Assembly: GCF_018381315.1 (NCBI RefSeq) | Contig: NZ_JAGZSD010000003.1 | Coordinates: 135,313-199,312, forward strand | Length of the DNA: 64,000 nucleotides | DNA from: Anaerostipes sp. | GTDB taxonomy: Bacteria > Bacillota > Clostridia > Lachnospirales > Lachnospiraceae | Direction: 5' to 3' | In this document: one piece after another, positions 22,780 through 63,530 of the stretch | Layout of the letters: every line of letters starts with the position of its first letter | Numbering within the stretch: the first letter of the stretch is position 1 | Notes under the pieces: model-generated | What the model saw: only the letters and a program-made list of their open reading frames with translations | Databases searched by the model: none | What the model was told of the DNA's origin: nothing | Position numbers and translations under genes: made by a program

Positions 22780-23292
22780 TCATCCTTTCTGTATCAGCGG
22801 AATGCCGTATACGACCTCCACCACCCGGTCTGCCATCTGTGCCATCCGGCAGTTAAGAAACCCCAGATACTCCTGATACTGCACCGTTTCCGGAGGATAC
22901 TTTATCCCATCGGAAAAAATCTCGTTGGTGACGATACAAATATCCTCTGCTTCTTTAAGAAGCTTCTCTATCCCGGCCAGGATTTCCTCTGGTGTTCCTG
23001 TACCTGCCCCTTCTTCCATAAACATCTCGTTGGCTGCCAGATTTGACATACAGTCTAAGAGTACATGTGCCCCCTCCGGCAGTCTGACCGCAGACAGGCC
23101 GGTGAAGCACTCCAGGGTTACAAATCCTCTATCCCGGCGCATTTCCCGGTGTCTTTGAATCTTCTTTTCGGTTTCTTCATCATAAGGAAACATGGTAGCT
23201 ATATAGATTTTTGGCTCTTTCCAGGAATCTGTGAATCCTTCGGCATATTCTGACTTTCCGCTGCCGCTGCCTCCGGTAATTAACGTAAACAT
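22780..23292 (-). CDS. cobU: Bifunctional adenosylcobinamide kinase / adenosylcobinamide-phosphate guanylyltransferase
   Basis: MFTLITGGSGSGKSEYAE intact P-loop, about 170 aa. Confidence 0.85.
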   Translation of the reverse strand: MFTLITGGSGSGKSEYAEGFTDSWKEPKIYIATMFPYDEETEKKIQRHREMRRDRGFVTLECFTGLSAVRLPEGAHVLLDCMSNLAANEMFMEEGAGTGTPEEILAGIEKLLKEAEDICIVTNEIFSDGIKYPPETVQYQEYLGFLNCRMAQMADRVVEVVYGIPLIQKG

Positions 23293-23304
23293 CAGGCTCT
23301 CCTT

Positions 23305-32104: not shown

Positions 32105-32119
32105 GAAAAATTCCCCTGC

Positions 32120-34380: not shown

Positions 34381-34404
34381 TCTACTTCCTTCTTTCTATA
34401 TCAT

Positions 34405-35286: not shown

Positions 35287-35726
35287 ATCATACTCCTGAT
35301 TCTGTCTGCTGTCTGCTTTGTTTTTTTGTGGTCCGTACCTCCCGATGTGACACCAATAACAATATCCCCGTCCTTTATGACAGAAGGAAAATAAAAACTG
35401 CACTCCTCCTTGCAGTCACTGATATTAACCGGAAGCTTTCTTTTTCCGGCCTCAGCAAAGACCGCATGATTGACTTCTCTGCTGTCGGTTGCCGCAAACA
35501 CCATGTCAAACCCGTTCAGATCCCCGGGAGCATACGGCCTTTGTATCCACCGGACGAACCCGTTATGTATCATTTCCTCTATGCCGCTGCATACGGAAGG
35601 AGAGATGACCGTTACCTGATTATGAAACATCCGCAGGGTACTGAGCCTGCGCAGGGCTATGCTGCCCCCTCCCACCATGACAAGCTTTAAATCCTGAATG
35701 TCAATATATAACGGAAAATAGGCCAT
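35268..35726 (-). CDS. Precorrin-2 dehydrogenase / sirohydrochlorin ferrochelatase-like (CysG N-terminal domain, SirC/Met8-type)
   Basis: FPLYIDIQDLKLVMVGGGSIALRRL Rossmann signature typical of the siroheme synthase N-domain, about 150 aa. Confidence 0.75.
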   Translation of the reverse strand: MAYFPLYIDIQDLKLVMVGGGSIALRRLSTLRMFHNQVTVISPSVCSGIEEMIHNGFVRWIQRPYAPGDLNGFDMVFAATDSREVNHAVFAEAGKRKLPVNISDCKEECSFYFPSVIKDGDIVIGVTSGGTDHKKTKQTADRIRSMIWNQKD

Positions 35727-35736
35727 TTCATCCTCC

Positions 35737-36966
35737 TTAATAAATACTTACTTCCTCTGCAGAAGCTTCCAGAGACTTTAAAACCTGCTGCCATTCTTCT
35801 CTTGGAAGGATGTCCTTGAGCCCAAAGAGAATCCTCTCTACCGCCGATGATGATGCTCTCTCAACCTCCTGCTTTAACGCACAGACATCTGCTCCCTCTT
35901 TGCGAAGCTTCTTATAAGATTTCTTCAGTTTGGCGCTTGTCAGGTCTGCAGCTGCACTGCCGACTGCACGGACCAAAGGAATATAGCTTCTGAAGTAATA
36001 CCAGTTAATAAATTCACCGGTCTGTTCCCGCAGAATCTCCCGGGCTTTTTTCATCTCTTCGCCGTTTACCGATGTCTGAATCCCCAGATCGTCCATACTA
36101 AGCAGCCGGCAGCCCGGAAGTTGGGCCAGTTTTGGATCCAGATCCCTGGGCACTGCCAGATCCGCAAACACATAAGAACGCTGTTTTTGAAATACCTCTG
36201 CAGCCTGCTGTGCCTGAACTGTATAGTGAGGGCTTCTCGTAGCACTGAAAATAAAATCCATAGATCCCATAGCTTCATAGCGTGCTTTATAAGGAATAAC
36301 CCCGCAGCCTGCCGGAATCAGTACATCTTGTTTTCTATACTGTCTCAAAGTCATGGAAACCTGGGCTTTTTTATGTACAAGCCATGAAGCCAGCAGACGG
36401 CCCATCTCTCCATTGCCTATGACCAGACACTGCTTCTCCCTAAAACTCCCATATCGTTCTTCCAGGATTGACACTGCTCTCTCCGGGACAGAGGTGTCTC
36501 TGCTGCCGATCCGCGTGTCTGTCTTGACTTTTTTTGCCGCAGTCACAGCCATTCTGAACAGCGTGTCCAGCACCGGGTCCGGCTTACAGCATTCCCTTGC
36601 CCGCTCCAGGGCGTCCCGGACCTGGGAGATGATCTGGTCTTCCCCAAGGATCTGGGAATGGATCCCGCTGGCCAGTTCCATAAGATAAAATACTGCCTCT
36701 TCATCTTCCCTGCAGACAAACAGGCTGCGTTTGGAATCCTCCGTTATGGAAAGCTGTGAAAACAGGTAATCCAGAGGATCTCTGTCCAGATGATAAAACC
36801 ACAGTTCAGTCCGATTGCATGTTGACAAAACAATACAGGAGGCCTCAGGGTCTGCTTCCTTCACAGACTGCATAAAACGGACTGCTCCCGAATCTGTAAA
36901 CGCAAAGGGTTCCCGCTCGTCCACCGATGCCGTATGATAATCAATTCCTATCATCGAAAGTTTCAT
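35737..36966 (-). CDS. hemA: Glutamyl-tRNA reductase
   Basis: MKLSMIGIDYHTASVDEREPF...LSTCNRTELW signature. First gene of the operon. Confidence 0.9.
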   Translation of the reverse strand: MKLSMIGIDYHTASVDEREPFAFTDSGAVRFMQSVKEADPEASCIVLSTCNRTELWFYHLDRDPLDYLFSQLSITEDSKRSLFVCREDEEAVFYLMELASGIHSQILGEDQIISQVRDALERARECCKPDPVLDTLFRMAVTAAKKVKTDTRIGSRDTSVPERAVSILEERYGSFREKQCLVIGNGEMGRLLASWLVHKKAQVSMTLRQYRKQDVLIPAGCGVIPYKARYEAMGSMDFIFSATRSPHYTVQAQQAAEVFQKQRSYVFADLAVPRDLDPKLAQLPGCRLLSMDDLGIQTSVNGEEMKKAREILREQTGEFINWYYFRSYIPLVRAVGSAAADLTSAKLKKSYKKLRKEGADVCALKQEVERASSSAVERILFGLKDILPREEWQQVLKSLEASAEEVSIY

Positions 36967-37106: not shown

Positions 37107-39215
37107 CTATTTTACATATTCTTTTATAAAGGTTTCTGTATCAACCGGTCTGGAAAAATAATATCCCTGTCCGCAGTCACACTGAAACTCCCGGAGAAAC
37201 TCCATCTGCTCCTCTGTCTCAATTCCTTCTGCCGTGGTTTTGGTGTTCCCGAATCCTCTGCACATATAAATAGTAGAACGGACAATAGCTCTGGCCCTTT
37301 CATTGGTCATAATCTCCGAAATAATGCTTTTATCCAGCTTAACCTCATCAAACTTAATGTTGGAGAGCAGCGTGATATTAGAGTATTTCGCACCATAATC
37401 ATCTAAAGAAAGATAGAATCCGGCGTCCTTGATTTTCTGGGCAAGGACTACCAATTCTGTCGTCTTAAGTTTTGAGACAGACTCCGTCACTTCAATACAG
37501 ATCTGGCCTGCATCCACATCATATTTTTTGCAGACTGCCAGGATCCGGTTTACAATATCATACTCTAACAGAGTGACCCTGGAAAAATTCACTGAAATCT
37601 TTCCTATATCATGTCCTTCATCATGCATCTGCCTGATAAGCCTGCAGACACATTCCAGTGCATAGAAGTCAATGTGCCGGATCACTCCCTCTGCCTCATA
37701 CAGCGGAATGAACCGGTCCGGAAAAATCAGTTCTCCGCTGCTGTCCACTCTTCTGATCAGGGCTTCTGCCCCTGAAAGCTCCCCTGTATGAAGATACACT
37801 TTTGGCTGCAGAAACACCTGGTATCTGTCCTGGCGGATATCCTTCAGGACCTGCTCTGCGACGGCAGAATCATGATTATAGCCGCCGTATACTGAGAACT
37901 CATAATACTTTTGTTTATTGGCATACATGAGTTCATCTGCATGATTAATTAATTCATTGATATTTGTGATCTCTTCTTCCCATGTAGTTCCAATAGACGC
38001 ACTGATCTCCCTGTGCTCCTTTACTTTCTTTCTCAGCATAAGTTCCTTGTCCTGAAACTCCTTCCGGCTGATATTCCTGCACAGGACAACAAATTCATCT
38101 CCTCCAATGCGGTAAATCTGCTTCCCGAAAATGGATTCTAAAATCTCTGCTGTGCGGATAATCAGTTTATCGCCGTACTCATGCCCATACCGGTTGTTTG
38201 CAATCTTCAGCCCGTTTAAGTCAACATAGGCTACGCCGATATTGCGGCAGCCGTGGTGCTCAATGTCAAATACCTCTTCCATATACTTATTACGGTTCCA
38301 GAGCCCTGTCAGAATATCTACATAACTCAGATACTCAAGCCTGGCAACCATTCTCCGCTTCTCCAGATCATTGGCAATGAAATAAGTCACAGACTTTAAG
38401 AGATCCGGATTTTCCCGGTTTCTCTTTGGATCATCTACTCCGATAAATCCGCTGAGTTTTCCTCTCTCATACAGAGGAGCCGCCATCAGACTCTTTATCC
38501 CCTGTCTCCTGAGTATTCCATAAGCCTCACTTTCCTGATTCATTTCCTGATCAAGGGAAGAAATAGAAAAGCTTCCGCACTTTTTAAACTGACTGAGCCA
38601 GTTTTCCAGAGCTGACAATGGAACTCCCTGAAGCTGGTCAATTTCACTTGTGATGTTCTTGTCACACCACTCATATGTATTGTTTGCAGTCTTTTGGTCA
38701 TGATCGATCTCAAAAATATAAGTTCTGTCCCCGCCGTAATAATCTGCAATTAATTCCAAAAGCCTGTTGATGGCACAGTCCAAATCCAGCGTGTCATTTA
38801 AAGTTTTGATGCACAGCAAAAGAGTCTCATCCTGTTTTATCTTACTGCCAAGACGCTTTTTCTGACGCTCCTTTTCCGTAATATCTGTCGCGATTTCCAT
38901 CCGGACGTGGTAGCCCGGAGTAAGTTCTATCAGATAATCTGCAATCGCAAAATATCTGTCTAAATATTTGTTATGGCGGATCCACCGGCAGCTTCCCTCC
39001 CAGAGGATTTTTTCATTGGTGCAGAATTCACAGGGTTTTTTCTTTCCCTGAAGAAGCTCATAACACTTCTGCCTTTTATAATCATCTCCGTTGATCTGAT
39101 ACCGTTTTTTCCCTGCCCCGTTGATGTACAGCACTTCATAAGTATCAATGTCACTGACATATATAATGTTGTCCGTACTGTCCAAAATCACTTTTCTGAG
39201 GATGTTATCATTCAT
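37107..39215 (-). CDS. PAS-GAF-GGDEF-EAL c-di-GMP turnover protein (paralogue of 5849..8020)
   Basis: RIGGDEFVVLC, QPKVYLHTGELSGAEALIRR (EAL), and N-terminal CEFCTNEK and NTYEWC motifs shared with the other copy. Confidence 0.85.
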   Translation of the reverse strand: MNDNILRKVILDSTDNIIYVSDIDTYEVLYINGAGKKRYQINGDDYKRQKCYELLQGKKKPCEFCTNEKILWEGSCRWIRHNKYLDRYFAIADYLIELTPGYHVRMEIATDITEKERQKKRLGSKIKQDETLLLCIKTLNDTLDLDCAINRLLELIADYYGGDRTYIFEIDHDQKTANNTYEWCDKNITSEIDQLQGVPLSALENWLSQFKKCGSFSISSLDQEMNQESEAYGILRRQGIKSLMAAPLYERGKLSGFIGVDDPKRNRENPDLLKSVTYFIANDLEKRRMVARLEYLSYVDILTGLWNRNKYMEEVFDIEHHGCRNIGVAYVDLNGLKIANNRYGHEYGDKLIIRTAEILESIFGKQIYRIGGDEFVVLCRNISRKEFQDKELMLRKKVKEHREISASIGTTWEEEITNINELINHADELMYANKQKYYEFSVYGGYNHDSAVAEQVLKDIRQDRYQVFLQPKVYLHTGELSGAEALIRRVDSSGELIFPDRFIPLYEAEGVIRHIDFYALECVCRLIRQMHDEGHDIGKISVNFSRVTLLEYDIVNRILAVCKKYDVDAGQICIEVTESVSKLKTTELVVLAQKIKDAGFYLSLDDYGAKYSNITLLSNIKFDEVKLDKSIISEIMTNERARAIVRSTIYMCRGFGNTKTTAEGIETEEQMEFLREFQCDCGQGYYFSRPVDTETFIKEYVK

Positions 39216-50360: not shown

Positions 50361-50579
50361 ATGAAAATCAAAACAGAAGTGCAGTTTCAGGGCCACAACG
50401 TATCTGTTGCGGATGTGGAAAAAATGGTAAAGGAAGATATTAAATCCAAAGGAATCAAACTGAATTCCTTAAGTTCACTGGAGATCTACTACCAGCCGGA
50501 AAACCGTTCCGTTTTCTATGTGGCAGCGGCCAAAGACGGCAGTGTAATTGACAATGAAGATGCACTGACCGTTGAGTAA
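50361..50579 (+). CDS. Small conserved-looking hypothetical protein (72 aa, soluble)
   Basis: RBS TAAGGAGGT 6 nt before the ATG. Has its own near-consensus promoter and a strong terminator. No recognisable motif. Confidence 0.5.
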   Translation: MKIKTEVQFQGHNVSVADVEKMVKEDIKSKGIKLNSLSSLEIYYQPENRSVFYVAAAKDGSVIDNEDALTVE

Positions 50580-50596: not shown

Positions 50597-50655
50597 ATCC
50601 CCCTGCTGCTTTTTACTGTCATGGCTATAAAAAGCGGCAGGGGGATTTCTATTCT
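50597..50655. terminator. Bidirectional rho-independent terminator between the small gene and the GPH transporter
   Basis: ATCCCCCTGCTGCTTTTT-loop-AAAAAGCGGCAGGGGGAT (18-bp stem, one mismatch) followed by TTCTATTCT. Confidence 0.8.
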
Positions 50656-50656: not shown

Positions 50657-52054
50657 TTACAATTCTCCCCTTGACTCCCGTTCTGTCAGTTCTTCCATAA
50701 TATGAGGATAAATTTTATCCAGCTTGTATAAAAACAGAGTTATGATCACGGCAGTCCACACGATCATCGGCCCGAATTTATAAATGTTAATAATCATATG
50801 TATGGCACTGTCCGGCTGCACCATGCTTCCGGCAGTAGAACTCAAATAGCCTGCAGCAGACAAAAGACTTGTGATAATGGCGGATGTCAGCCCTGCCCCA
50901 AGTTTCATTCCAACAGAACTTCCTGCAAAGATCAAACTTTCCTGCCGGATGTGGGTCTTCCACTGTCCGAATTCCACCACATCTCCCAAAAATCCAAACA
51001 CAATCGAATTAAGCGGTGCCAGTCCGATTCCACGGATCACACAGCTGAACACCATAAAACCAAAATTCTGAGGATTGATAAAGAAAATTATATGTCCGGC
51101 AAATGCAAGACAGGCACCGGCTAATGACATATTTCTTTTTCCGAAACGTCTAAGCAGGATAGGACTCATAAAGGTGACGCCCACGATAATGAGTGTCTCT
51201 GTCAAATACAAGGCACTGTACATCCATGTATCATTGTGAAAAATATATTTACAGTAATAAGGCAGGATCGTTCCTGTTACACAGTAAATTCCGTTCTGCA
51301 TGGTCCAAAGTATAACCACTGCCCAAAAATACTGATTTGTCACTAAGGCTTTCAGCGCCTTCTTGGCAGGTACTTTAGACTGCCTTTTTTTGGCCTCAAT
51401 GACCACGGTCTCCCTGCACTTGAAAAAGCAGATCAGCAGCAACAGCAGTGCAATAGAAGCCCAAAGAGCCATGGTTTTAATCCATGCCGCCTGGTCATTT
51501 CCAAACAACTTTACTACCGGCATAGTACAGGTAACTGCCAGGATCCTTCCGAACGGAGACAGTCCCATTCTCACTACACTCAGCATATCCCGCTCTGAAG
51601 ATATCCTGGTCATCATAGCAGATAAGCTGCTGTACGGCAGGTTGATCGCTGTATAACAGACAGTGTTGCAGAAATTATAAGTCACGAACATATAGGCAAA
51701 CTGCACTGTGGCTGTGCTGTCGGGAACCGCAAATAAAAGAACTGCTGAGAGAGCAAAGGGCACACACATCCAGAGAAGCCACGGTCTTGATTTACCCCAT
51801 CTGGTTTCTGTCTTCTCTACAATCACACCCATTACAGCATCTGATACTCCGTCAAACATTCTGGATAAAAGCATAACAAGGCCCACGGTCGCCGCACTTA
51901 CCCCTACATAATCTGTATAAAATAATGTAAGCAGCGTACTGATCATACCGAATACCACATTACATGCAGTATCTCCGCAGCCATAAGCAAATCTGGTGCC
52001 CCATCCCAGCCTCCCGGCGGCTAAATTTTCCCTGGACTTTTTATTTTCATTCAT
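50657..52054 (-). CDS. Glycoside-pentoside-hexuronide (GPH):cation symporter family transporter
   Basis: GPH-type N-terminus (RLGWGTRFAYGCGDTACNVVFGMISTLLTLFYTDYVGVSAATVG, WGKSRPW). RBS GGAAGGGAGA before ATG 52054. Confidence 0.8.
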   Translation of the reverse strand: MNENKKSRENLAAGRLGWGTRFAYGCGDTACNVVFGMISTLLTLFYTDYVGVSAATVGLVMLLSRMFDGVSDAVMGVIVEKTETRWGKSRPWLLWMCVPFALSAVLLFAVPDSTATVQFAYMFVTYNFCNTVCYTAINLPYSSLSAMMTRISSERDMLSVVRMGLSPFGRILAVTCTMPVVKLFGNDQAAWIKTMALWASIALLLLLICFFKCRETVVIEAKKRQSKVPAKKALKALVTNQYFWAVVILWTMQNGIYCVTGTILPYYCKYIFHNDTWMYSALYLTETLIIVGVTFMSPILLRRFGKRNMSLAGACLAFAGHIIFFINPQNFGFMVFSCVIRGIGLAPLNSIVFGFLGDVVEFGQWKTHIRQESLIFAGSSVGMKLGAGLTSAIITSLLSAAGYLSSTAGSMVQPDSAIHMIINIYKFGPMIVWTAVIITLFLYKLDKIYPHIMEELTERESRGEL

Positions 52055-52073
52055 TCTTATCTCCCTTCCGCAT

Positions 52074-52991
52074 TCATAAGATAAGCTCTTTCTCAATCCG
52101 TTCTCTGGCTTCCGGCGCCTGCTTCTCCATCTTCTCCGGAAATCCAAACATGGATACGCATGCAATATTGTCTCCTCCCGCCTTCGGTGCATCTTCCCTT
52201 AACTGGCGGTTTGCGAAATCCATTTCTCTCAGCGTCTCAAAAATTCCGTCAAAATCCACATCCCCTTCACCCATAGCCAAATGCTGATGTATCGTCACAT
52301 CCGATTTTCCTCTTTGGTTTAACCACGGCGGGTTGGCAATATAACGGCAGTCTAAGGTCTGGTTAAATGTGTCGGCAAACAGCACATGTGTCAATTCCTC
52401 ACCTGCATACTGCAGCATAGAACGCACATCTCCTTTTCCTTCATCGTAGAAAAACCCATGCGGAGAAGAATATACATATCCTAAATTGGGCGAACGGAAA
52501 GATTTTACTAAGTCACAGGTCTCATTATTCAGTTCACAAAAATCATAGGGATGAGACTGAATCTCTACACGAAGTCCCTCTCTCTCAATGATAGGCAGCA
52601 GTTCTTCCATAGATTTAAACCACATGCCATTGCATAATTCCTGCTGATTCGGATCCCCGGAAAGCTCCGTGTTGATCACCGGCACACCCATGTCCACAGC
52701 GATCTCAATCATCCTCTTCCAGTTGGCTACTGCCATCTGTCTCTGTTCCTCTGTCGGCCCGGACCAACGGTAAACCACGATAAAGGAGGAAATCTCCAGC
52801 CCGGTCTCCTTCAGTGCTTTCCGGTACTCTGACTCACATTCTTTGGAAAACAGTGGATGTTTATAAAACGGATTGATTCTCGGATGGGGAGATTGTTCAA
52901 TGTACTTATAGCCCCAGTCTGCCGCCTGATGTACCATCCGGTTAATATCCATCTGTTTTGCAAGGACATCTACGTCAAATGCTATCTTCAT
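52074..52991 (-). CDS. Xylose-isomerase-like TIM-barrel protein (sugar phosphate isomerase/epimerase family)
   Basis: AP-endonuclease-2/xylose-isomerase-like TIM barrel profile. RBS AAGGAGG before ATG 52991. Confidence 0.75.
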   Translation of the reverse strand: MKIAFDVDVLAKQMDINRMVHQAADWGYKYIEQSPHPRINPFYKHPLFSKECESEYRKALKETGLEISSFIVVYRWSGPTEEQRQMAVANWKRMIEIAVDMGVPVINTELSGDPNQQELCNGMWFKSMEELLPIIEREGLRVEIQSHPYDFCELNNETCDLVKSFRSPNLGYVYSSPHGFFYDEGKGDVRSMLQYAGEELTHVLFADTFNQTLDCRYIANPPWLNQRGKSDVTIHQHLAMGEGDVDFDGIFETLREMDFANRQLREDAPKAGGDNIACVSMFGFPEKMEKQAPEARERIEKELIL

Positions 52992-53079
52992 ATATAATAC
53001 CTCCTTCTTAAGAAAGCGGATATTCATTCCGAAATAGGGTTATGAATATCCGCTTATGTCTTGCATACTTTGGTCTGTT

Positions 53080-54018
53080 TTATTTGCTGATGGTCTGGTT
53101 CAGTGCGTCAATAGAAGTAAGAACCCCCGCTTCCACAGACATAGTCAGATCTTCCATTTCAAGGGATACGTCTCCGTCATATCCCATCATGCTGAGTACG
53201 GAGAAGAATTCCTTCCACCATTGCAAATCTTTCCCGCATCCTACTGCTACATAGTTCCATACGCGGTCTGCAGACTCTGTAACCGGTCTTGGTTCCAGAA
53301 TACCGTTGGTATCAGCAAGCCCCCGCTCGATGCGGGCATCCTTTCCATGCACGTGGAAAATACAGCCTTTTAGTGCTCTTGCCGCCGCAATGGGATCAGC
53401 TCCCAGAATCATCATATGTGACGGATCGAGATTGATTCCGATCATAGGATCTGTGGCTTCTCTAAGTTTTAACATAGTCTCTGCACTCCACACCATAGTT
53501 CCCGGAAATTCCTCGATGGCAATCTGCTCTACTCCGCACGTTTTACAGTGTGCGGCAAACTCCTTCCAGAAATCAATAGTCACTCTCCACTGGTACTCAT
53601 AAGCGGGTGCCATAAAGTCAGGCCATGATATGGTGGAGGTAATCCAGTTGGGAGTTGTATCCGTCTCGTTTCCTGCAGGAAGCCCTGCCATGGCAACAAT
53701 CTTCTTAACACCCAGCTTTCCGGCTAACCTGGCACATGCATACATAGAATCCTTATATTCTTCCCCGGTTTTTGTTGGCCAGAGCGGATTGCAGGAGGTA
53801 TTCAGGGCTGAAATCCGCATTCCTCTCTTAGTAAGTTCCGCCTGAAAGGCTTCCAGTTTAGACGGATCTTCCAGTAATTCTACGGTATTGCAGTGTTTTC
53901 GTGCGCCCCAGCCTCCTGCGGTCATCTCCACCGCATCAATTCCAAGAGATTTTACCTTGTCAAGCATATCTGTAAAAGAAAGCTCTGCAAATACATCGGT
54001 ACATATTGCTAACTGCAT
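53080..54018 (-). CDS. Xylose-isomerase-like TIM-barrel protein (second copy, sugar phosphate isomerase/epimerase family)
   Basis: MQLAICTDVFAELSFTDMLDKVKSLGIDAVEMTAGG... typical N-terminus of the family. Confidence 0.75.
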   Translation of the reverse strand: MQLAICTDVFAELSFTDMLDKVKSLGIDAVEMTAGGWGARKHCNTVELLEDPSKLEAFQAELTKRGMRISALNTSCNPLWPTKTGEEYKDSMYACARLAGKLGVKKIVAMAGLPAGNETDTTPNWITSTISWPDFMAPAYEYQWRVTIDFWKEFAAHCKTCGVEQIAIEEFPGTMVWSAETMLKLREATDPMIGINLDPSHMMILGADPIAAARALKGCIFHVHGKDARIERGLADTNGILEPRPVTESADRVWNYVAVGCGKDLQWWKEFFSVLSMMGYDGDVSLEMEDLTMSVEAGVLTSIDALNQTISK

Positions 54019-54033
54019 ATCATTTCCTCCTAA

Positions 54034-55212
54034 TTATTTAAAGTCAACCCAGACTCCGCCTTTATCAGCAGATTCTACACATTTGGTTACCCAGCGGATT
54101 CCTTCGATACCTGCATTAATATCAGGATATACCAGATTTTTTAACGTCTCTTCGTCACCGCGGTCTTTCGCATCCATTGCGACAGCAAATTTCAGATAAA
54201 TATTTGCCCAGCTCTCCGGAAGTCCTTCCGCATGGAGTGCACCGAGACGCTCATCTTCATTACACTCATCATATAGATAAGGCATAGAACGGATCATCTT
54301 TCTGATCGGTTCTCCCTGTACCTGATACAGCAGTTCATTAGGCTGATTGTCTGAAAATTCAACGGAGGCTTTGGAACCGACAATGCGGATTCTGTGCCCA
54401 TCCATGCATCCGGCATTCACCGCGGAGGCCCACATCCGTCCTACGGCTCCGTTTTCATAACGCATCATCACATAGGCATTGTCCTCCAATGGTGCACGGG
54501 ATTTCACAAAGCTCTGGCGGTCACATAGGATTTCTTTCAGCTTCAATTCCGGGCATACCAGTTCGGACATATAAAATGTATGCGTGGATAAATCGCCAAG
54601 TACAAAGGACGGACCTGATTTTTCCGGATCCACACGCCATTTCTGTCCTTCTGACTCTTTATCTCCAATCTCATCGCAGGCAAATCCATGAGTATACTGG
54701 AGTTCTACCATATGGATATCTCCCAGATCACCATTCTTTACCATCTGACGCATCTGCAAGAGGAGCTGGCTTCCTGAAAATCCGTAGGTAACCCCCACAA
54801 TCTTGTTCATTTTTTCTGCCAAAGCTTTGATTTCTTCTCCCTGCTCTGTTTTAAAGAATAACGGCTTCTCACAGATTACATGAAGACCTGCCTCTAAAGC
54901 AGCCTTTGCAATCTCAAAGTGCGTAAAATTTGGTGTTGCAATGGATACAACTTCAATTCCATCCGGACGTTTTGCCTCTTCTTCAAACATAGTCTTATAA
55001 TCAGGGTAAAGCCGTTCTTCACTGACACCTAAATTTTTTCCAAAATCCCTGCAGCGCTCAAAGTCAATATCAAATGCTCCTGCTACAAGTTCAAATGCTG
55101 TATTGTCTCTTAGTGCTCCCAGGCGGTGCTTGTAGCCTACATTCCCTGTACGTCCGCCCCCAACCATAGCCCAGCGGTAAGGTCTCTTGATCTTCTTTTC
55201 ACCGTTTAACAT
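54034..55212 (-). CDS. Gfo/Idh/MocA-family NAD(P)-dependent oxidoreductase
   Basis: N-terminal Rossmann fold (WAMVGGGRTGNVGYKHRLG), EKPL motif, 392 aa. Confidence 0.85.
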   Translation of the reverse strand: MLNGEKKIKRPYRWAMVGGGRTGNVGYKHRLGALRDNTAFELVAGAFDIDFERCRDFGKNLGVSEERLYPDYKTMFEEEAKRPDGIEVVSIATPNFTHFEIAKAALEAGLHVICEKPLFFKTEQGEEIKALAEKMNKIVGVTYGFSGSQLLLQMRQMVKNGDLGDIHMVELQYTHGFACDEIGDKESEGQKWRVDPEKSGPSFVLGDLSTHTFYMSELVCPELKLKEILCDRQSFVKSRAPLEDNAYVMMRYENGAVGRMWASAVNAGCMDGHRIRIVGSKASVEFSDNQPNELLYQVQGEPIRKMIRSMPYLYDECNEDERLGALHAEGLPESWANIYLKFAVAMDAKDRGDEETLKNLVYPDINAGIEGIRWVTKCVESADKGGVWVDFK

Positions 55213-55459
55213 TTTTCATTTCTCCTTCACATAAATTTCATTATTATTGTTTTCCTAAATAAGCAGGGAATCCCTTATGATACAGAGCGCGCATTTCGGA
55301 TATATTGAACAAATACTATGTATTTATCTCACTTTCTTTGTTCATTTCCTTTACTGTAATTGCATTATAATCTATAATAGACCCATGGTAAATACTGCAT
55401 CTTGTCTAAAACTTCATCATTCTTGCTTTATTAAAAAAGAACAAAAAGGAGAGATTATT

Positions 55460-56305
55460 ATGAGAAGTGTTGATCCCGGAATTCTGCCTCAGTCTGTGTG
55501 TTTTTCTTTTACCCCTTCGGAGACAGCAAAACAGCTTTACTTTTATCCTACATGGTGCGGACATTATTTCTGCAATAAAAATTACTATATGAAGCGCCAG
55601 TCTTTCCCTCCCCTTCTGATCGTGTTTGTGAGGGAAGGCGTCTTTCATTTTGAATACAGGAATATGATATTTGATGCCCAGAAAGGCGATGTGGTTTTGC
55701 TTGACTGCAGTGAGCCTCACTATTATTATGCGGATGATGGGCTGGAGTTTTTATATATGCATTTCGACGGTTCCAATGCCCATGAGATCTGCCAAAACAT
55801 TTTAGACCAGACCGGTCCTCTGATTCAGCAGGAAAACAACGTGCTGATCGGACAGCAGTTATATAGTATGGTGGACTTTCACATGCATGACGGGATCGAG
55901 ACAATGTTTCAAAGCTCCATGAGAGTGTATAAGATATTTGAATGCCTGCTGGCCCCCGACAGACAGCAGCTTAAAGAAGATAATCCGATTGATAATGTAA
56001 TCCGCTATATCCGCTCAAATATAGGAAAAGATATTACTTTGGAAGAAATGTCTGAAGTGGCAAATTTGAGCACCTTCTATCTTGCACACTGCTTCAAGCA
56101 GCAGACTGGCTTCTCACCAAAGGAATATGTAATCAATACAAGACTGGACCAGACTAAAATCCTTCTTGCGCGCACAACCAAATCCATTTCCGAAATCGCC
56201 TATGAGGTCGGCTACTCGTCAGGCAGCAGCCTTACCAATATGTTTGTAAAACGAATGGACATGTCTCCCCGTCAGTACCGGATGATCTATCAGAGTACAT
56301 CGTAA
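55460..56305 (+). CDS. AraC-family transcriptional regulator (cupin-like sensor + AraC HTH), divergent from the sugar operon
   Basis: C-terminal ...LEEMSEVANLSTFYLAHCFKQQTGFSPKEYVINTRLDQTKILLARTTKSISEIAYEVGYSSGSSLTNMFVKRMDMSPRQYR. RBS AAAGGAGAG before ATG 55460. Confidence 0.8.
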   Translation: MRSVDPGILPQSVCFSFTPSETAKQLYFYPTWCGHYFCNKNYYMKRQSFPPLLIVFVREGVFHFEYRNMIFDAQKGDVVLLDCSEPHYYYADDGLEFLYMHFDGSNAHEICQNILDQTGPLIQQENNVLIGQQLYSMVDFHMHDGIETMFQSSMRVYKIFECLLAPDRQQLKEDNPIDNVIRYIRSNIGKDITLEEMSEVANLSTFYLAHCFKQQTGFSPKEYVINTRLDQTKILLARTTKSISEIAYEVGYSSGSSLTNMFVKRMDMSPRQYRMIYQSTS

Positions 56306-56502: not shown

Positions 56503-59382
56503 TTGGGAAAATTTACGCTACAGGAAATAGAGACATTTGCCGATAAAATATTGCGGACTTACTTCTGTGACTCTGACCAGGAGTTTATGATTTCATCATT
56601 TGCTGATGATATTATATGGCTGGGCGGCGGTGAATATCAGAAAGCGGAAGGAAAGGAAGCTGTCACAGCCTGTTTTCAGATGGGAAAGGATGAGATGATT
56701 GCCTGTGACATGACAGATGAAGTCTACCATTCTATGGAACTTGGGGGAGGAAGTTATCTGTGTGAAGGCGTCAGCCGCCTCCGCAGTAAACCGGAGTCTG
56801 AAACCTATATGGATGTTCAGCAGCGTGTTACCTTTATTTTTCGGGAAAAAGGAGACACACTGGAAACTGTACATATCCATAATTCAATTCCCTACTCAGC
56901 CATCAAGGAAACGGAACTGTTTCCCGTAGAAGCCGGCAGAGAAGAATTTATACGTCTTCAGCTGGCCCTGGATGAAAAGACCCAGGAATATGCACAGCAG
57001 GCTCAGTTTCTTGAACATCTGTACAACAGTGTACCCTGCGGCATTGTACAGCTGACCGTGGAGCCTCCTCATTCAGTTGTCACCGCCAATCCCATGGCCT
57101 GGAAGCTTTATGGATCCTCCCCTGAAAGTCCTGACACCATACAGAATCCTCTGTTTACGGTCAACAATGAAGATTATGACTGGGTAATATCTCTGTTGGA
57201 AAACCTTGATCCCGATGGAGAGACCGTCACCTACCGCCGTAAGTGCATACAGGAGAACGGATCAGAATCATGGATTAATGTAGTCATGGGAAGGATTATT
57301 AATGACAACGGACAGGATGTTATTCAGGCAGTTCTCACAGATATTACTGAACAGACACTGCTGGAAATGGCACAGGCACAGGAACAGGCTTTGGAAAACC
57401 GTTTTCTGCGCACTGCAATCTATACAGCCTATCCCCTGATCATGAGTATCAATCTGACTCAGGATACTTATAAATGCCTGGCCTACGGACAGGAACATTT
57501 TATATTTCCGCTGGAAGGCAGCTACAGTGACATGCTGAACATTACAAAAGAAAATACCTACCCTTCCTATCAAAAAGATTACTATGAGACTTTAAACCGC
57601 GATGAAATTCTGCGCCATTTTGAGAATGGAGAACATGAAGTCTATATGGAACTGCAGGAAAAGGACGTGCGCGGGGACTACCACTGGATTTCCAACCATA
57701 TCATATATGTAGAAAATCCATATAACAGTGACGTATTGGCTATTAACCTGGTCAAGGTCCTGGATGCGCAAAGGCAGGAACAGGCACGGCAGGAACAGCT
57801 TTTGAGAGATGCCCTTGCTTCTGCAAAAGCTGCCAACTCTGCCAAGTCTGACTTTTTATCCCGTATGAGCCATGATATCAGGACTCCTATGAATGCTATT
57901 GTCGGCATGAGCACCATAGGCAAGCTGAAAGCAGACGACATCAGAATAGTTCAGGACTGCTTTCAGAAGATTGATGCTTCCTCCCAGTATCTGCTCTCTC
58001 TGATCAATGACATTCTGGATATGTCAAAAATAGAGACCGACAAGATGGAGATTGCCCGGGAACTCTTTGATTTCAGCTCTTTTCTAAAGGATATCAATCA
58101 AATCATATACTCACAGACGGTGGAAAAAGGTGTATCCTATGAGATGCGCCATAAAGAACCTCTGGAAAGTTACTATATCGGAGATCCGCTGCGCATGAAA
58201 CAGATTCTCATGAATCTTCTGTCCAATGCCTTAAAGTTCACTCCAAAAGGAGGCAGCATCGGCATTGACATACAGGAAGAACGGCGGACAAATGGTTTTG
58301 CCTATCTGAAATTTAAGGTCTGGGATACAGGCATCGGAATGTCCGAAGAATTCATGTCCCGGATGTTCCAGCCTTTTGAACAGGAATCCCCCGGGAATGC
58401 GCGCAACAATATAGGAAGCGGGCTCGGGCTGTCTATTGTATATAATCTGGTGAATCTGATGGGCGGAGATATTCAGGTAAAGAGCAAAAAACAATCCGGC
58501 AGTACCTTCACTGCAGTTGTTCCATTCCAGCTGGTCACAGATAACGAAGAAAAAGAATGGGAAAGAAAACGCCGGAATCTCCTGAAAGATTTTCATGTAC
58601 TGGTGGTGGATGATGATCCTGCCGTGGGAAAACAGACTGCGGATATCTTAGATGATATCGGAGCCAAAACTGTGTGGACAGACTCAGGGATCAAGGCTGT
58701 ACAGGAGGTTGAAACATGTATCCGGGAAGAGAGAATGTTTGACATTGCCATGATTGACTGGAAAATGCCCGGAATCGACGGCATAGAAACAGCCCGCCGG
58801 ATCCGTCAGATTGTAGGCCCTGATACGATGATTATCATGATCACCGCCTACAACTGGAGTGAGATCGAAGACGAAGCACGTGAAGCAGGCATCAATTATT
58901 TTATTGCTAAACCTCTGCTGCGTTCAGCTATTTATGAAACCTTCTCCAAACTGGATGAAAACGAAAGCCTGCCGCCTTCTCCTTCTGAAATTTCGCTGGC
59001 GGGGAAACGAATCCTTCTTGCAGAGGACAATGAATTAAACCGGGAGATTGCTGTAACTCTTCTGGAAATGCATGGAGCCGCAGTCGATACCGCACAAAAC
59101 GGAGAGGAAGCAGCAGCCTGCTACCGCACTCATGATGCAGGTACTTATCAGGCCATTCTTATGGATATCCGGATGCCGGTCATGGACGGACTGGACGCCA
59201 CAAGAAACATACGGGCTTCCGGCAGGGCAGATGCCCTTTCTGTCCCGATTCTCGCTATGACAGCGAATGCATTTGAGGAAGACAAAAAAGAAGCCTTTCA
59301 GGCCGGCATGACCAGCTACCTTATCAAACCTCTGGATATCAAAGTTCTTTTGAAGGAACTTCAGAAAGTTATCAATACATAA
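56503..59382 (+). CDS. Hybrid sensor histidine kinase / response regulator (NTF2-like N-domain, PAS, HisKA-HATPase, two receiver domains)
   Basis: H-box LSRMSHDIRTPMNAIVGM, G-boxes (GSGLGLSIV) and receivers (VLVVDDDP...DWKMPGIDG; ILLAEDNELNREI...DIRMPVMDG). TTG start with RBS GAGAGGGTG. Confidence 0.85.
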   Translation: MGKFTLQEIETFADKILRTYFCDSDQEFMISSFADDIIWLGGGEYQKAEGKEAVTACFQMGKDEMIACDMTDEVYHSMELGGGSYLCEGVSRLRSKPESETYMDVQQRVTFIFREKGDTLETVHIHNSIPYSAIKETELFPVEAGREEFIRLQLALDEKTQEYAQQAQFLEHLYNSVPCGIVQLTVEPPHSVVTANPMAWKLYGSSPESPDTIQNPLFTVNNEDYDWVISLLENLDPDGETVTYRRKCIQENGSESWINVVMGRIINDNGQDVIQAVLTDITEQTLLEMAQAQEQALENRFLRTAIYTAYPLIMSINLTQDTYKCLAYGQEHFIFPLEGSYSDMLNITKENTYPSYQKDYYETLNRDEILRHFENGEHEVYMELQEKDVRGDYHWISNHIIYVENPYNSDVLAINLVKVLDAQRQEQARQEQLLRDALASAKAANSAKSDFLSRMSHDIRTPMNAIVGMSTIGKLKADDIRIVQDCFQKIDASSQYLLSLINDILDMSKIETDKMEIARELFDFSSFLKDINQIIYSQTVEKGVSYEMRHKEPLESYYIGDPLRMKQILMNLLSNALKFTPKGGSIGIDIQEERRTNGFAYLKFKVWDTGIGMSEEFMSRMFQPFEQESPGNARNNIGSGLGLSIVYNLVNLMGGDIQVKSKKQSGSTFTAVVPFQLVTDNEEKEWERKRRNLLKDFHVLVVDDDPAVGKQTADILDDIGAKTVWTDSGIKAVQEVETCIREERMFDIAMIDWKMPGIDGIETARRIRQIVGPDTMIIMITAYNWSEIEDEAREAGINYFIAKPLLRSAIYETFSKLDENESLPPSPSEISLAGKRILLAEDNELNREIAVTLLEMHGAAVDTAQNGEEAAACYRTHDAGTYQAILMDIRMPVMDGLDATRNIRASGRADALSVPILAMTANAFEEDKKEAFQAGMTSYLIKPLDIKVLLKELQKVINT

Positions 59383-59468: not shown

Positions 59469-61154
59469 TTATTTCTCATTGTGGAGCAGCTTATGTTCCT
59501 TTCCTTTCAAAAGGCCGTCATAGACTGTTGCAACGATAGGATTCTGGCTGGAAAGCTTAATCTGAGCCATTTTATCAATCTTATAGAGACCTTCCACCCT
59601 TGCTTTCTTTGTTCTCGGTCCGATCGGCACCGGCTGGCCTCCTCCTGTAATACAGCCCCTTTTGCACGCCATGACTTCTACAAAATCATAGTGTACTTCT
59701 CCTGCTTCGATCTGATCCAGCACGTCAGAAGCACAGCGCAGGCCATTGACTACCGCAATGTTTACATCCCGGTCTCCAAGCTTTACCGAAGCTTCTTTGA
59801 TCCCGTCCACACCGCGCACACCGGTAAAGCTGATCGCTTCCAGGTCTTCTGCCCTGTCGCTGTTCATCAGCCGGCGAAGAACGGCCTCAGTCACACCTCC
59901 GGTCACACCGAAGATCGCCCCTGCCCCGGATGCAATGCCAAACGGCATATCCAAAGCTTCCGGTTCCATCTGGGCAAGATCAATTCCTGCTTCCTGAATC
60001 ATTCGGGCTGCCTCCGTAGTTGTAAGCACATAGTCTACATTTTGTTCTCCGTCATTAAAGTGCTCCGGCCTTGTGATCTCCGCCTTTTTTGCAGTACAGG
60101 GCATGATGGACACCACCATGATTTTTCTGGAATCACCGGCATCGTCCATACGTGCTTCCTCTTTTATCAGCGCCCCGAACATTTCCTGAGGAGAGCGGCA
60201 GGTAGAAATGTGATCCCTGAACTGAGGATACCTGTTTTCACAGAATTTCACCCATGCCGGACAGCAGGATGTAAACAGAGGGAGCTTATCCCCTGCTTCC
60301 AGCCTCTCCACCAGTTCCTTGGACTCTTCCATAACGGTTAAGTCCGCACCAAAGTTGGTGTCATATACTTCATCAAATCCAATCCTCCGGAGGGCAGCCA
60401 CAAGACGGCCAAGCACATTCTCCCCTTTTGGAATGCCGAACTTATCGCCCACAGCCACACGAACTGCCGGTGCTATCTGCACTACCACCCGGATTTCAGG
60501 ATCAGAGAGGGCATCCCATACCTGCTCTATATTCTGCTTAATGGTAATAGCACCTGTAGGACAGACCGCCCGGCACTGTCCGCAGCCCACACAGTCCGTC
60601 TGTGCCAGATCCTTATTGAAGGCCGTTGTCACCTGCATCTTAGATCCCCGGAATGCAAAATCCAAAATTCCCATCCCCTGGATTTCGTCACAGGTCCTGA
60701 CACAGTCACCGCACAAAATACATTTATTAGGATCTCTTATGATACATTCGGAAGACAGATCTTTCGGAAGCTGCTTTTTATTATTCGGAAAACGCACTTC
60801 CTTGATGCCCAGCTGCCTGGATAACTTCTGAAGAACACAGACACCATTCTTTGTACAGGTGGTACAGTCTCTGCAGTGAGAAGCAAGCAGCAGTTCAATA
60901 ATCATTTTTCTGTGATGTTTCAGCCTCGGAGTGTTGGTATAAATCACCATCTTATCCCTCGGTGTCTCAGAACAGGATGCAAAAATTCTTCCCCTGTCAT
61001 CTTCAACAACACACATGCGGCATGCACCGTATGTGGAAAGTTCTGAATGATAGCAGAAGGTAGGAAGATCTATTCCGGACTTGCGGATTACAGACAGAAC
61101 ATTTTTTTCGTCGGTAAATTCCACCCTTCTGTTATTGATCGTCATATAACTCAT
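59469..61154 (-). CDS. hydA: [FeFe]-hydrogenase catalytic subunit (group A, HydA/HndD-type, with N-terminal 2Fe-2S and 4Fe-4S domains)
   Basis: H-cluster motifs FTSCCPAWVKF and MPCTAKKAE. N-terminal CxxC ferredoxin-like cysteines. Confidence 0.9.
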   Translation of the reverse strand: MSYMTINNRRVEFTDEKNVLSVIRKSGIDLPTFCYHSELSTYGACRMCVVEDDRGRIFASCSETPRDKMVIYTNTPRLKHHRKMIIELLLASHCRDCTTCTKNGVCVLQKLSRQLGIKEVRFPNNKKQLPKDLSSECIIRDPNKCILCGDCVRTCDEIQGMGILDFAFRGSKMQVTTAFNKDLAQTDCVGCGQCRAVCPTGAITIKQNIEQVWDALSDPEIRVVVQIAPAVRVAVGDKFGIPKGENVLGRLVAALRRIGFDEVYDTNFGADLTVMEESKELVERLEAGDKLPLFTSCCPAWVKFCENRYPQFRDHISTCRSPQEMFGALIKEEARMDDAGDSRKIMVVSIMPCTAKKAEITRPEHFNDGEQNVDYVLTTTEAARMIQEAGIDLAQMEPEALDMPFGIASGAGAIFGVTGGVTEAVLRRLMNSDRAEDLEAISFTGVRGVDGIKEASVKLGDRDVNIAVVNGLRCASDVLDQIEAGEVHYDFVEVMACKRGCITGGGQPVPIGPRTKKARVEGLYKIDKMAQIKLSSQNPIVATVYDGLLKGKEHKLLHNEK

Positions 61155-61166
61155 GTTCGTCTCCTC

Positions 61167-63053
61167 CTACCCTTCAATATGGATCGCACCAAATGCACAG
61201 GCACTCTCACAAGCCCCGCATTTAATACATTTGTCATTATCAATTACATATGGTTCCTTGATCTGCCCGCTGATAGCACCTGCCGGACAGTTCCTTGCGC
61301 ATTTAGAACATCCTTTACAGCGCTCCGGACTGATGACAAATCTCCGGAGAGCACTGCAGTTGTGTGATGCACACTTTTTGTCAACCACATGTTCCACATA
61401 CTCATCCCGGAACAGTTTTAAGGTACTCATAACCGGGAGGGCAGCACTTTTCCCCAACCCGCACAGTGCAGTTTCTGTGATCGTTGTGGCAAGCTCCTCC
61501 AGAAGCATCAGATCCTCCGGCTCACCCTTGCCTCCTACAATTCTCTCCAGGATCTCCAGCATCCGCTTTGTGCCTTCCCGGCATGGGACACATTTCCCGC
61601 AGCTCTCATTCTGGGTAAAGTTCATGAAAAACCTTGCCACTTCTACCATACAGGTGCTGTCATCCATGACAACTAATCCGCCGGAGCCGATCATTGCACC
61701 CATTTTTTTCAGGGAATCAAAATCCAGATTCACATCCAGATGAGGTGTAATCAGACAGCCTCCTGACGGCCCGCCGATCTGTACGGCCTTAAATTTGCCG
61801 TCTCCTTTGATTCCTCCTCCGATGTCGTAAATAACCTCCCGCAGAGTTGTACCCATAGGGACTTCGATCAGACCCGTATGCTTGACGCTTCCGGTAAGGG
61901 CAAACGCTTTTGTTCCCGGACTGTTTTCCGGACCAATTCCTTTAAACCACTGTGCCCCTTCTGCAATGATCATAGGAACATTGGCAAAGGTCTCCACATT
62001 ATTCAGCACCGTCGGTTTTCCAAACAGCCCCTGCTCCACTGTTCTCGGCGGTTTTACGCGGGGCATTCCCCGGTTTCCTTCAATAGATGCGGTCAGTGCA
62101 CTTCCCTCTCCGCATACAAATGCCCCCGCTCCCTTATTGATATGTAAATGAAACGAAAACTCTGTCCCTAAAATATGGTCTCCCAGCAGGCCGCACTCTT
62201 CTGCCTGTCCAATAGCTCTTTTAAGCCGGCTGATGGCCAAAGGATATTCTGCCCGGACATAGATATATCCCTCTTCTGCACCTACAGCATAGGCGGCAAG
62301 CATAATCCCCTCTATCATCTTGTGGGGATCACCTTCCATAATACTCCGGTCCATAAAAGCACCCGGATCACCTTCATCTCCGTTGCAGACCACATAGCGC
62401 ACCTTTTCCGGCTGTCCTGCCACCTGGGACCACTTATATCCTGTAGGGAATCCTCCGCCTCCCCGTCCTCTCAGATTTGACTCGGTGATCTCCCGGATCA
62501 CATCCTCCGGCTTCATTTCAAACAAAGCTTTTTCCAAGGCTTCATACCCGCCAACGGACAGGTACTCTTCTATATGCTCTGCATCAATATGCCCGCAGTT
62601 TTTCAGTACATTTCTTGTCTGTTTTTTATAAAAAGGGATGTCTTCCTGTTTCTGATACTCAATCCCGTCTCCCTTAAACAGCAGATGACGGATCGGCTCA
62701 CCTTTTTCTATGGTCCTGTGAAAAATCTCATCACAGTCCTCCGGCTGGACTTTCGTATATAAGATGCCATGAGGTTCGATCCGCATCAGCGGTCCCATCT
62801 CACAAAATCCGTGGCAGCCGCTTTTCTTAATACCGATCTCCCCGTCTCCGTGTGCAATTTCAGGGCCGAATTGTACTTCTACGTCAGGATACTCAGCGGC
62901 CAGCTCACACATCCTGTCATAAATCTCCCCTGACCCGCCGGAAAGGCAGCCTGTACCCGCACAGATCAGAACTCTGCATTTACTTTTTTTCACCTGTTCT
63001 CTGGAAGCTTCGCGGACCCGGCCGAGAGCTTCTCTGTTTTCTATCTTTTTCAT
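61167..63053 (-). CDS. hydB: NuoF-like flavoprotein subunit of trimeric hydrogenase (NADH-binding, FMN, 4Fe-4S; HydB/HndC-type)
   Basis: GRGGGGFPTGYKW FMN/NADH motif, N-terminal thioredoxin-like 2Fe-2S, C-terminal two 4Fe-4S ferredoxin motifs (CIKCGACESAC). Confidence 0.9.
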   Translation of the reverse strand: MKKIENREALGRVREASREQVKKSKCRVLICAGTGCLSGGSGEIYDRMCELAAEYPDVEVQFGPEIAHGDGEIGIKKSGCHGFCEMGPLMRIEPHGILYTKVQPEDCDEIFHRTIEKGEPIRHLLFKGDGIEYQKQEDIPFYKKQTRNVLKNCGHIDAEHIEEYLSVGGYEALEKALFEMKPEDVIREITESNLRGRGGGGFPTGYKWSQVAGQPEKVRYVVCNGDEGDPGAFMDRSIMEGDPHKMIEGIMLAAYAVGAEEGYIYVRAEYPLAISRLKRAIGQAEECGLLGDHILGTEFSFHLHINKGAGAFVCGEGSALTASIEGNRGMPRVKPPRTVEQGLFGKPTVLNNVETFANVPMIIAEGAQWFKGIGPENSPGTKAFALTGSVKHTGLIEVPMGTTLREVIYDIGGGIKGDGKFKAVQIGGPSGGCLITPHLDVNLDFDSLKKMGAMIGSGGLVVMDDSTCMVEVARFFMNFTQNESCGKCVPCREGTKRMLEILERIVGGKGEPEDLMLLEELATTITETALCGLGKSAALPVMSTLKLFRDEYVEHVVDKKCASHNCSALRRFVISPERCKGCSKCARNCPAGAISGQIKEPYVIDNDKCIKCGACESACAFGAIHIEG

Positions 63054-63056
63054 GAT

Positions 63057-63530
63057 TTAAGCTCCTCTCAGTTCGCGGATCAGTTCAGCTGCTGCATCCG
63101 GTGTCATTGCCGGGTATACCTTATCGTTCACCGTAAGTACCGGTGCAAGGCCGCAGGCACCCAGACAGGATACCGTCTCCAGTGTAAACAGCATATCATC
63201 AGTGGTGGCCTTTTCCCCCGAAAGCCCCAGTTCACTGTACAGCCGTTCCAGAATAGCCGCCGACTTGCGTACATGGCAGGCTGTTCCATTACATACTTTA
63301 ATGATATATTTTCCTTTTGGTTCAAAAGAAAAATTTTCATAAAATGTCGCAACACTGTACGCCTTTGCTTCATCAATAGACAGCCTGTCAGCAACATAGC
63401 TCAAAAGCTCCGGCGGCAGATAGCGGTATTCAGCCTGAATATCCTGAATAACCGGAATCAAAGCCGCCTGGTTCAGCCCGTGAGATGCTATGATTTCATC
63501 TGTTCTGTCATAATAGGCCTGATCTAACAT
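63057..63530 (-). CDS. hydC: NuoE-like 2Fe-2S subunit of trimeric hydrogenase (HydC/HndA-type)
   Basis: CNGTACHV and CLGACGLAPV thioredoxin-like [2Fe-2S] motifs, 157 aa. Confidence 0.9.
   Translation of the reverse strand: MLDQAYYDRTDEIIASHGLNQAALIPVIQDIQAEYRYLPPELLSYVADRLSIDEAKAYSVATFYENFSFEPKGKYIIKVCNGTACHVRKSAAILERLYSELGLSGEKATTDDMLFTLETVSCLGACGLAPVLTVNDKVYPAMTPDAAAELIRELRGA

Follow-up and report, generated by a model that had tools for sequence, protein, structure and literature searches.

A predicted AraC-activated cyclitol front-end module with non-canonical enzyme families in an Anaerostipes genome

Described inositol systems and the Anaerostipes locus

In the canonical inositol pathway a dehydratase is required to act after IolG and before IolD, and in the front end known from B. 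subtilis and Salmonella (IolG-IolE with IolH/IolI) a Gfo/Idh/MocA dehydrogenase is followed by a PF01261 dehydratase and an accessory IolH-like barrel. Salmonella iolE-iolG1 has in addition a dedicated AraC-type activator, ReiD (PMC9430895, PMC10783015). We describe here a locus of comparable plan within 64,000 nucleotides of an Anaerostipes sp. genome (NCBI RefSeq assembly GCF_018381315.1, contig NZ_JAGZSD010000003.1, forward-strand positions 135,313 to 199,312), a stretch that we refer to as the window and in whose coordinates all positions are given. A divergent AraC-family regulator is followed, on the minus strand, by genes for a Gfo/Idh/MocA oxidoreductase (OX), two xylose-isomerase-like TIM barrels (TIM1 and TIM2) and a GPH-family transporter. 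With somewhat better than even confidence, we propose that this locus is an AraC-activated front-end module for the catabolism of an inositol stereoisomer or a close derivative. The logic would be the known one, an IolG-IolE(-IolH) front end under a ReiD-like activator, and what would be new, judging from sequence, are the non-canonical enzyme families and the GPH carrier. Unlike the canonical system, OX and TIM1 fall outside the IolG and IolE equivalog families, the carrier is not an IolT-type sugar porter, and iolBCDJ are not adjacent.

The ORF (open reading frame) list of the window returned all five genes at the coordinates of an initial annotation made from the DNA letters and their ORF translations, and family scans agreed with its gene order and family assignments (Table 1). 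OX has both the N- and the C-terminal Gfo/Idh/MocA domain (PF01408 and PF02894/PF22725 above cut-offs in the Pfam scan), and a CEKP motif and D207-x3-H211 are seen in its translation, as expected of that family. The transporter is a full-length GPH family member (PF13347 E=2e-80; TIGR00792 304 bits, cut-off 231), and the regulator, with PF02311, PF12833 and PF00165 above cut-offs, has the cupin and double HTH of the AraC/XylS family. The two TIM barrels had initially been treated as a pair; they are dissimilar proteins and remote paralogues only, with an hhalign probability of 61% over ~108 columns.

For OX we predict the activity of a cyclitol (inositol-isomer) dehydrogenase that supplies the keto substrate of TIM1. 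Its best PDB match, 7d5m (and similarly 7d5n), runs end to end over 392 residues at E=8e-159 with most positions matched, about two-thirds as judged by eye from the alignment and not as a computed identity, and 3dty is matched at E=7e-152. These three entries are oxidoreductases without a functional name in the PDB, they fall with OX into one 390-aa Gfo/Idh/MocA clade, and the remaining PDB dehydrogenases are matched at ~1e-15 or weaker. Presumably 7d5m and 7d5n are the Azotobacter “inositol dehydrogenase homolog”, one of the entries having myo-inositol bound; a literature search on this point gave nothing relevant. Homologues of OX bear generic database names only, the closest named one being a Blautia protein with 93% identity.

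For TIM1, whose family is very tightly conserved across genomes, we predict the role of a non-canonical inosose (keto-cyclitol) dehydratase within the structural clade of SCO6571 and AtHYD. The top structural match is SCO6571 (2zds), a protein without known function; identity to SCO6571 and to AtHYD, the 2-hydroxy-3-keto-glucal hydratase of Agrobacterium tumefaciens (8ro4), is only 19-24%. scyllo-Inosose is the carbocyclic analogue of 3-keto-glucopyranose, and we infer that a likeness to AtHYD would fit inosose dehydration, both reactions adding or removing water beta to a ring ketone that bears an alpha-hydroxyl. Unlike AtHYD, TIM1 has inositol genes as its genomic partners and not genes for a glucoside 3-dehydrogenase or lyase.

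TIM2 would epimerise or isomerise a keto-cyclitol intermediate. It may be an IolH: JGI gives that name to its homologues (78-81% identity). IolH itself has no established activity (PMC10783015). The nearest solved relatives of TIM2 are T. maritima TM0416 (2zvr) and ketose 3-epimerases, and its own predicted structure is of moderate confidence (pLDDT 74.8). We take TM0416 to be IolO, the 5-keto-L-gluconate epimerase of the T. maritima inositol pathway, an identification that its database label (“Uncharacterized protein TM_0416”) does not confirm.

TIM1 and TIM2 beside inositol genes in other genomes

The decisive support for an inositol-type function comes from the context of TIM1 and TIM2 in other genomes. 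One genome per species was scanned for TIM1 and the resulting 79 loci were mapped by tblastn and ORF clustering. Counted at an identity of at least 60%, there were 82 TIM1 copies in 79 genomes, and 70 of the 82 adjoin (within 3.5 kb) a Gfo/Idh/MocA dehydrogenase, which is an OX homologue in 39 cases and an IolG-like protein of 335-360 aa in 31. The OX-type loci are usually arranged as AraC<->OX-TIM1(-TIM2)-transporter and the IolG-type loci as LacI...IolG-like-(TIM2)-TIM1-transporter, OX thus replacing the IolG-like enzyme in otherwise identical operons. TIM1 is equally close to the window copy in both types (87-93% identity), and OX and IolG should therefore supply the same kind of substrate. 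Because the genomes of Blautia celeris and Intestinibacillus carry both an OX-type and an IolG-type module, OX itself probably acts on an isomer or derivative other than myo-inositol. On the B. subtilis-type IolG equivalog (cut-off 540) the IolG-like partners reach 451-484 bits; that of Lucifera butyrica exceeds the cut-off with 589 bits, and TIM1 (85%) and TIM2 (80%) come immediately after it.

Complete Vibrio chromosomes place TIM1 (83%) and TIM2 (79%) inside an iol cluster that reads IolB, IolG-like, sugar porter, TIM2, LacI, TIM1, IolC-DUF2090, AdhE and IolD, with scores of 319 bits for IolB (cut-off 205) and 890 bits for IolC-DUF2090 (cut-off 600). In the Vibrio iol clusters L083-L085 and L045, and likewise in that of V. 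viridaestus (L048), no canonical IolE was found and TIM1 and TIM2 are the sole PF01261 genes. Since such a cluster lacks a canonical IolE and TIM1 is the only candidate, TIM1 would fill the inosose-dehydratase slot in Vibrio. A Clostridiales MAG (metagenome-assembled genome; L055) has the order TIM1-GPH-TIM2-IolJ-IolC-IolD-IolB, again with TIM1 and TIM2 as its only PF01261 genes. It is in these Vibrio and Clostridiales orthologues, and not in the window itself, that TIM1 stands as sole candidate dehydratase of an otherwise complete iol cluster. Neighbouring iol genes are seen for OX-type modules as well, for instance IolC-DUF2090 in L077, IolD and an IolE-like gene in L087, IolG-like, IolE-like and DeoR genes on P. 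megaterium pBM700, and an IolG-like gene in the same block in L059 and L068; the genomes with such neighbours include a Burkholderiales MAG and a Bacillaceae-like contig.

Several of these loci have features of their own. The AdhE-type bifunctional aldehyde/alcohol dehydrogenase within the Vibrio iol cluster possibly handles malonic semialdehyde or an aldehyde product. An uncultured Vibrio sp. MAG (L046) has the unit OX - sugar-porter MFS - TIM1 tandemly duplicated at 4968..13611, in two near-identical copies. In L087 (GCA_004358745.1, labelled Vibrio vulnificus) the genes for IolD, an IolE-like protein, a TIM1-like protein, OX, a sugar porter and AraC lie side by side; the record contains Bacillus-type genes (YolD, YndA_coil, an IS110 fragment), its OX is closest to Peribacillus, and it may be mislabelled or contaminated. 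In Bacillus sonorensis (L086, 5018..8182) a trio of AraC, a TIM barrel (313 aa) and OX (393 aa, 74% identical) is flanked by a GH43/GPH xyloside locus and the levanase PTS operon. We take this trio to be probably the uncharacterised B. subtilis yfiF/yfiH/yfiI, by name only; the literature on yfiG/yfiH/yfiI yielded nothing useful.

From these comparisons a pathway can be proposed, in which the catalytic steps, the substrate and the placing of the downstream genes in this genome are predictions. The GPH-family symporter would take up the substrate, and OX, with NAD(P)+, would oxidise one ring hydroxyl to give an inosose (keto-inositol). TIM1, as a metal-dependent TIM barrel, would then eliminate water beta to the ketone, the reaction of IolE, yielding trihydroxycyclohexane-1,2-dione, and TIM2, with its IolH-like epimerase/isomerase fold, would interconvert keto-cyclitol isomers and so admit non-myo isomers. 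Genes located elsewhere would have to provide the opening of the ring and the lower pathway (IolD, IolB, IolC, IolJ/DUF2090). In Anaerostipes (Lachnospiraceae), copies of iolG and iolE are indeed scattered far from iolCDB (PMC8355322). The IolE of that study, AR1Y2_0345, which proteomics showed to be induced, is probably not of the TIM1 type, having the size of a canonical IolE (299 aa, 33.8 kDa), and from this paper we therefore take no more than the example of iol modules that lie scattered.

Sequence alone does not name the substrate, and the transporter reaches no substrate-specific equivalog among those compared (MelB 155 of 456 bits, glucuronide transporter 218 of 528). Homologues of it with 77-82% identity follow OX-TIM1-TIM2 in Lachnospiraceae/Blautia loci, and the GPH carriers that accompany IolG-like+TIM1 modules are either of the window type (58-59% identity) or of a second type (34-36%). 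The presence of a GPH transporter had initially been taken to argue for a glycoside; in related modules, however, the same slot is occupied by GPH, SSS, sugar-porter MFS or CUT2-type ABC carriers (2x ABC_tran, BPD_transp_2, Peripla_BP_4). CUT2 systems carry monosaccharides and polyols (TCDB 3.A.1.2), and this interchangeability implies a monosaccharide-sized substrate.

Counter-evidence and alternative readings

A number of observations weigh against an inositol-type function. Searches by tblastn with Vibrio and Clostridiales IolB, IolC, IolD and IolJ gave no match to iolB, iolC, iolD or iolJ within the 64-kb window, in agreement with the initial annotation, and iolB/C/D/J lie within 8 kb in only 5 of the 79 related loci, most modules standing alone. 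A self-contained deglycosylation module, too, would be expected to consist of a stand-alone dehydrogenase, two TIM barrels and a GPH carrier, and such carriers classically move glycosides. The scores on inositol models are low: OX has 60.1 bits on the IolG model TIGR04380 (cut-off 355) and 27.6 on NF052679 (540), TIM1 has 37.5 bits on the IolE model TIGR04379 (290), to which 35 of 38 TIM1 family members give weak matches only, and TIM2 has 25 bits on the IolO model (300). A TIM1 profile built from orthologues only matches the PDB IolE 3cny at E=0.14, and the nearest functionally characterised structure to TIM1, AtHYD, belongs to the 3-keto-glycoside route and not to the inositol route. A TIM1-like protein with 54% identity occurs in Bacillaceae alongside an IolE-like one and hence is not simply a substitute for IolE there. 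Finally, our literature search found no experimental or biochemical work on homologues of OX, TIM1 or, for that matter, TIM2. Best reciprocal matches to IolG, IolE and IolI, together with a complete iol cluster elsewhere, had been named at the outset as a result that would overturn a deglycosylation reading; the best matches in gene context are indeed iol clusters, but the proteins are not canonical IolG or IolE. On the comparative evidence the favoured reading is nonetheless the inositol-type module, which had been kept as a fallback.

Of the alternatives, the one that survives best, though we consider it unlikely, is that the substrate is some other monosaccharide-sized polyol or rare sugar (a 1,5-anhydro-hexitol, L-glucose or a scyllo-inosose-like carbasugar), or that the locus is a keto-sugar epimerisation shunt like E. 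coli YcjQRS. OX would then make a keto intermediate that the TIM barrels epimerise or dehydrate toward central metabolism. This would agree with most modules being stand-alone units with monosaccharide-type transporters, as well as with the PDB search, in which OX is equally far (E about 1e-15) from scyllo-inositol/L-glucose dehydrogenase, levoglucosan dehydrogenase, DgpA and others. It leaves the repeated linkage to IolG, IolB, IolC, IolD and IolJ without a positive explanation, however, and the locus holds no candidate downstream kinase or aldolase.

Somewhat less probable is a self-contained 3-keto-glycoside (O-glycoside) deglycosylation, as in Bacteroides/Alistipes, Agrobacterium and the levoglucosan pathway, a route that the initial annotation had favoured. 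Here OX would oxidise an imported glycoside at C3, TIM2 would eliminate the aglycone, and OX would reduce 3-keto-glucose to glucose. One dehydrogenase and two TIM barrels would suffice alone, which would explain why most modules lack iolBCD nearby, and the carrier is of the GPH family. A broad TIM1 family profile also prefers AtHYD (E=1.5e-18) over IolE (1.5e-7), but AtHYD goes unmatched at E<1 by the profile built from orthologues only. Similarly, the top NCBIfam match of OX is levoglucosan dehydrogenase, NF052479, yet the match is weak at 73.9 bits (cut-off 650; 6a3f E=9e-16), while the BT_2158 and BT_2159 models (NF058561/NF058563) are further still below their cut-offs, at 45 bits (750) and 34 bits (650). 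No LgdB entry is among the PDB matches. The SSS, sugar-porter and CUT2 carriers of equivalent operons speak against bulky glycosides, and TIM1 and TIM2 within complete iol clusters otherwise devoid of IolE, together with the Lucifera IolG that precedes them, would be hard to accommodate.

A more speculative and in our view doubtful variant is a self-contained module that would oxidise, beta-eliminate, hydrate and reduce a substituted cyclitol or a GPH-imported glycoside (an O-methyl-inositol such as pinitol, or a glycosyl-cyclitol), with TIM1 as an AtHYD-like hydratase/eliminase and OX performing both redox steps. Were this true, it would represent a new non-hydrolytic ether/glycoside cleavage system in gut Firmicutes, and TIM1 would be the first member of an enzyme family, so far uncharacterised, that is widespread and has representatives in Bacillus, Vibrio, Blautia and Megamonas.

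Very improbable, lastly, is a C-glycoside deglycosidase of the DgpA/DgpB-DgpC or CarA/B/C type with puerarin or other C-glycosyl flavonoids as substrates, a reading which had been put forward from the co-occurrence of Gfo/Idh/MocA and PF01261 proteins in a gut Lachnospiraceae genome: OX resembles DgpA at superfamily level only (7xr9, E=2.4e-15, Rossmann half, residues 23-175; other DgpA-type chains 1e-13 and 2e-4), the gaps between the genes leave no space for a small beta-subunit gene, and no FAD/GMC CarA-like gene is present, so that with no orthology, no beta subunit and no specific structural resemblance this reading is effectively excluded. To our knowledge DgpB is not a TIM barrel, and the premise that two TIM barrels equal DgpB-DgpC was therefore wrong. 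More generally, the locus shares with DgpA/DgpB-DgpC, CarA/CarB-CarC and Bacteroides/Alistipes BT2156-2160/AL1 the two superfamilies and the oxidise-then-eliminate logic; it differs in orthology, in lacking a small beta subunit and any specific lyase resemblance, and in genomic context, and it has the defining features of none of these systems nor of the levoglucosan system (LgdA/B1/B2/C).

Operon layout, regulation and significance

The intergenic gaps among the four minus-strand genes (15, 88 and 19 nt) fit a single operon. The transporter start, ATG 52054, sits 19 nt past the TIM2 stop codon, and a longer ORF from 52192 would overlap TIM2. After the transporter stop codon, between the transporter gene and a convergent DUF6465 ORF, is a stem-loop of -31.8 kcal/mol (z = -6.5 in an RNA fold against 200 shuffles) with a T-rich tail on the + strand side, which is likely the terminator closing the operon. 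The DUF6465 ORF (50361..50579, +; 72 aa, E=6e-10) has its own promoter-like site and ribosome-binding site, and the hairpin is common to both genes.

Table 1. Features of the candidate cyclitol module (window coordinates)
Feature	Position	Strand	Evidence
Stem-loop, likely operon terminator	50597..50646	.	RNA fold
GPH/MFS_2 cation symporter, 465 aa, predicted substrate importer	50657..52054	-	PF13347, TIGR00792
TIM2, xylose-isomerase-like TIM barrel, 305 aa, IolH-like, accessory part of the module	52074..52991	-	PF01261 E=8e-38
TIM1, xylose-isomerase-like TIM barrel, 312 aa, module anchor	53080..54018	-	PF01261 E=3e-31
OX, Gfo/Idh/MocA NAD(P)-dependent oxidoreductase, 392 aa	54034..55212	-	PF01408 + PF02894
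Divergent control region between operon and AraC gene	55213..55459	.	AT-rich; promoter-like hexamers, direct repeat
AraC-family regulator, ~281 aa from likely start, predicted operon activator	55460..56305	+	AraC_binding + HTH_18/HTH_AraC

By analogy to ReiD, the AraC protein is predicted to activate the operon in response to the substrate or an intermediate, and in most OX-type loci a homologue of it (50-77% identity) is transcribed divergently from OX-TIM1. A divergent AraC gene had been reported correctly, but with a start at 55277 that is merely the longest-ORF start; the likelier start is ATG 55460, behind the ribosome-binding site AAAGGAGAG, which makes the divergent control region 247 bp long. 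This region contains an imperfect 25-nt direct repeat (55223-55247 and 55347-55371, 76% identical) and promoter-like sites at 55392->55364 (-) and 55350->55378 (+), which are consensus matches only; such sites are not enriched over shuffles (18 vs 13.6 +/- 3.9).

The flanking genes (SUF Fe-S assembly, the DUF6465 ORF, a hybrid histidine kinase and an [FeFe]-hydrogenase) are unrelated to the module and are not kept beside it in other genomes. The kinase, directly 3' of the AraC gene (56503..59382, +; 959 aa, cytoplasmic, with PAS, HisKA, HATPase_c and two receiver domains), was considered as a member of the system and rejected: it accompanies the module in the near-identical contig L001 only and in 0 of 79 other loci, and is probably unrelated. 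Beyond it, at 59469..63530 (-), genes for an [FeFe]-hydrogenase large subunit, a NuoF-like flavoprotein and a 2Fe-2S thioredoxin-like subunit resemble an electron-bifurcating hydrogenase operon. Elsewhere in the window, a long operon for cobalamin and tetrapyrrole biosynthesis (~17469..36966, -), with CobQ-like and CbiA-like amidotransferases, a CbiJ-methylase fusion, a HemL-like class-III aminotransferase and glutamyl-tRNA reductase, has a GC content of up to ~0.50 against ~0.42 around it. The window also holds two GGDEF-EAL paralogues of ~700 aa each (5849..8020 and 37107..39215, both -), two MatE efflux genes (8070..9458 and 12975..14348) and a 449-aa ORF with a TTG start (4484..5833, +) that matches no Pfam family at E<=1e-8.

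Dietary phytate is a source of inositols, which together with plant cyclitols are significant substrates in the gut. Their use by gut microbes has been linked to host metabolism (PMC8355322). For gut Firmicutes, the present comparison cautions that a combination of Gfo/Idh/MocA and TIM-barrel genes should not be read as C- or O-glycoside deglycosylation.

We regard it as probable that TIM1 represents a second inosose-dehydratase family, very widespread and un-annotated. If this is so, and if OX is an unrecognised cyclitol dehydrogenase, surveys that count iolE/iolG by likeness to the B. subtilis and Salmonella genes would miss part of the taxa that use inositol and would also mis-score Vibrio-type clusters as IolE-less. 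The OX-TIM1 pair is widespread, occurring in Lachnospiraceae, Oscillospiraceae, Negativicutes, Bacillaceae, Vibrio, Pantoea and Burkholderiales, and its two proteins everywhere bear no more than the labels “Gfo/Idh/MocA oxidoreductase” and “sugar phosphate isomerase/epimerase”; a single function established biochemically would therefore carry over to thousands of genes.

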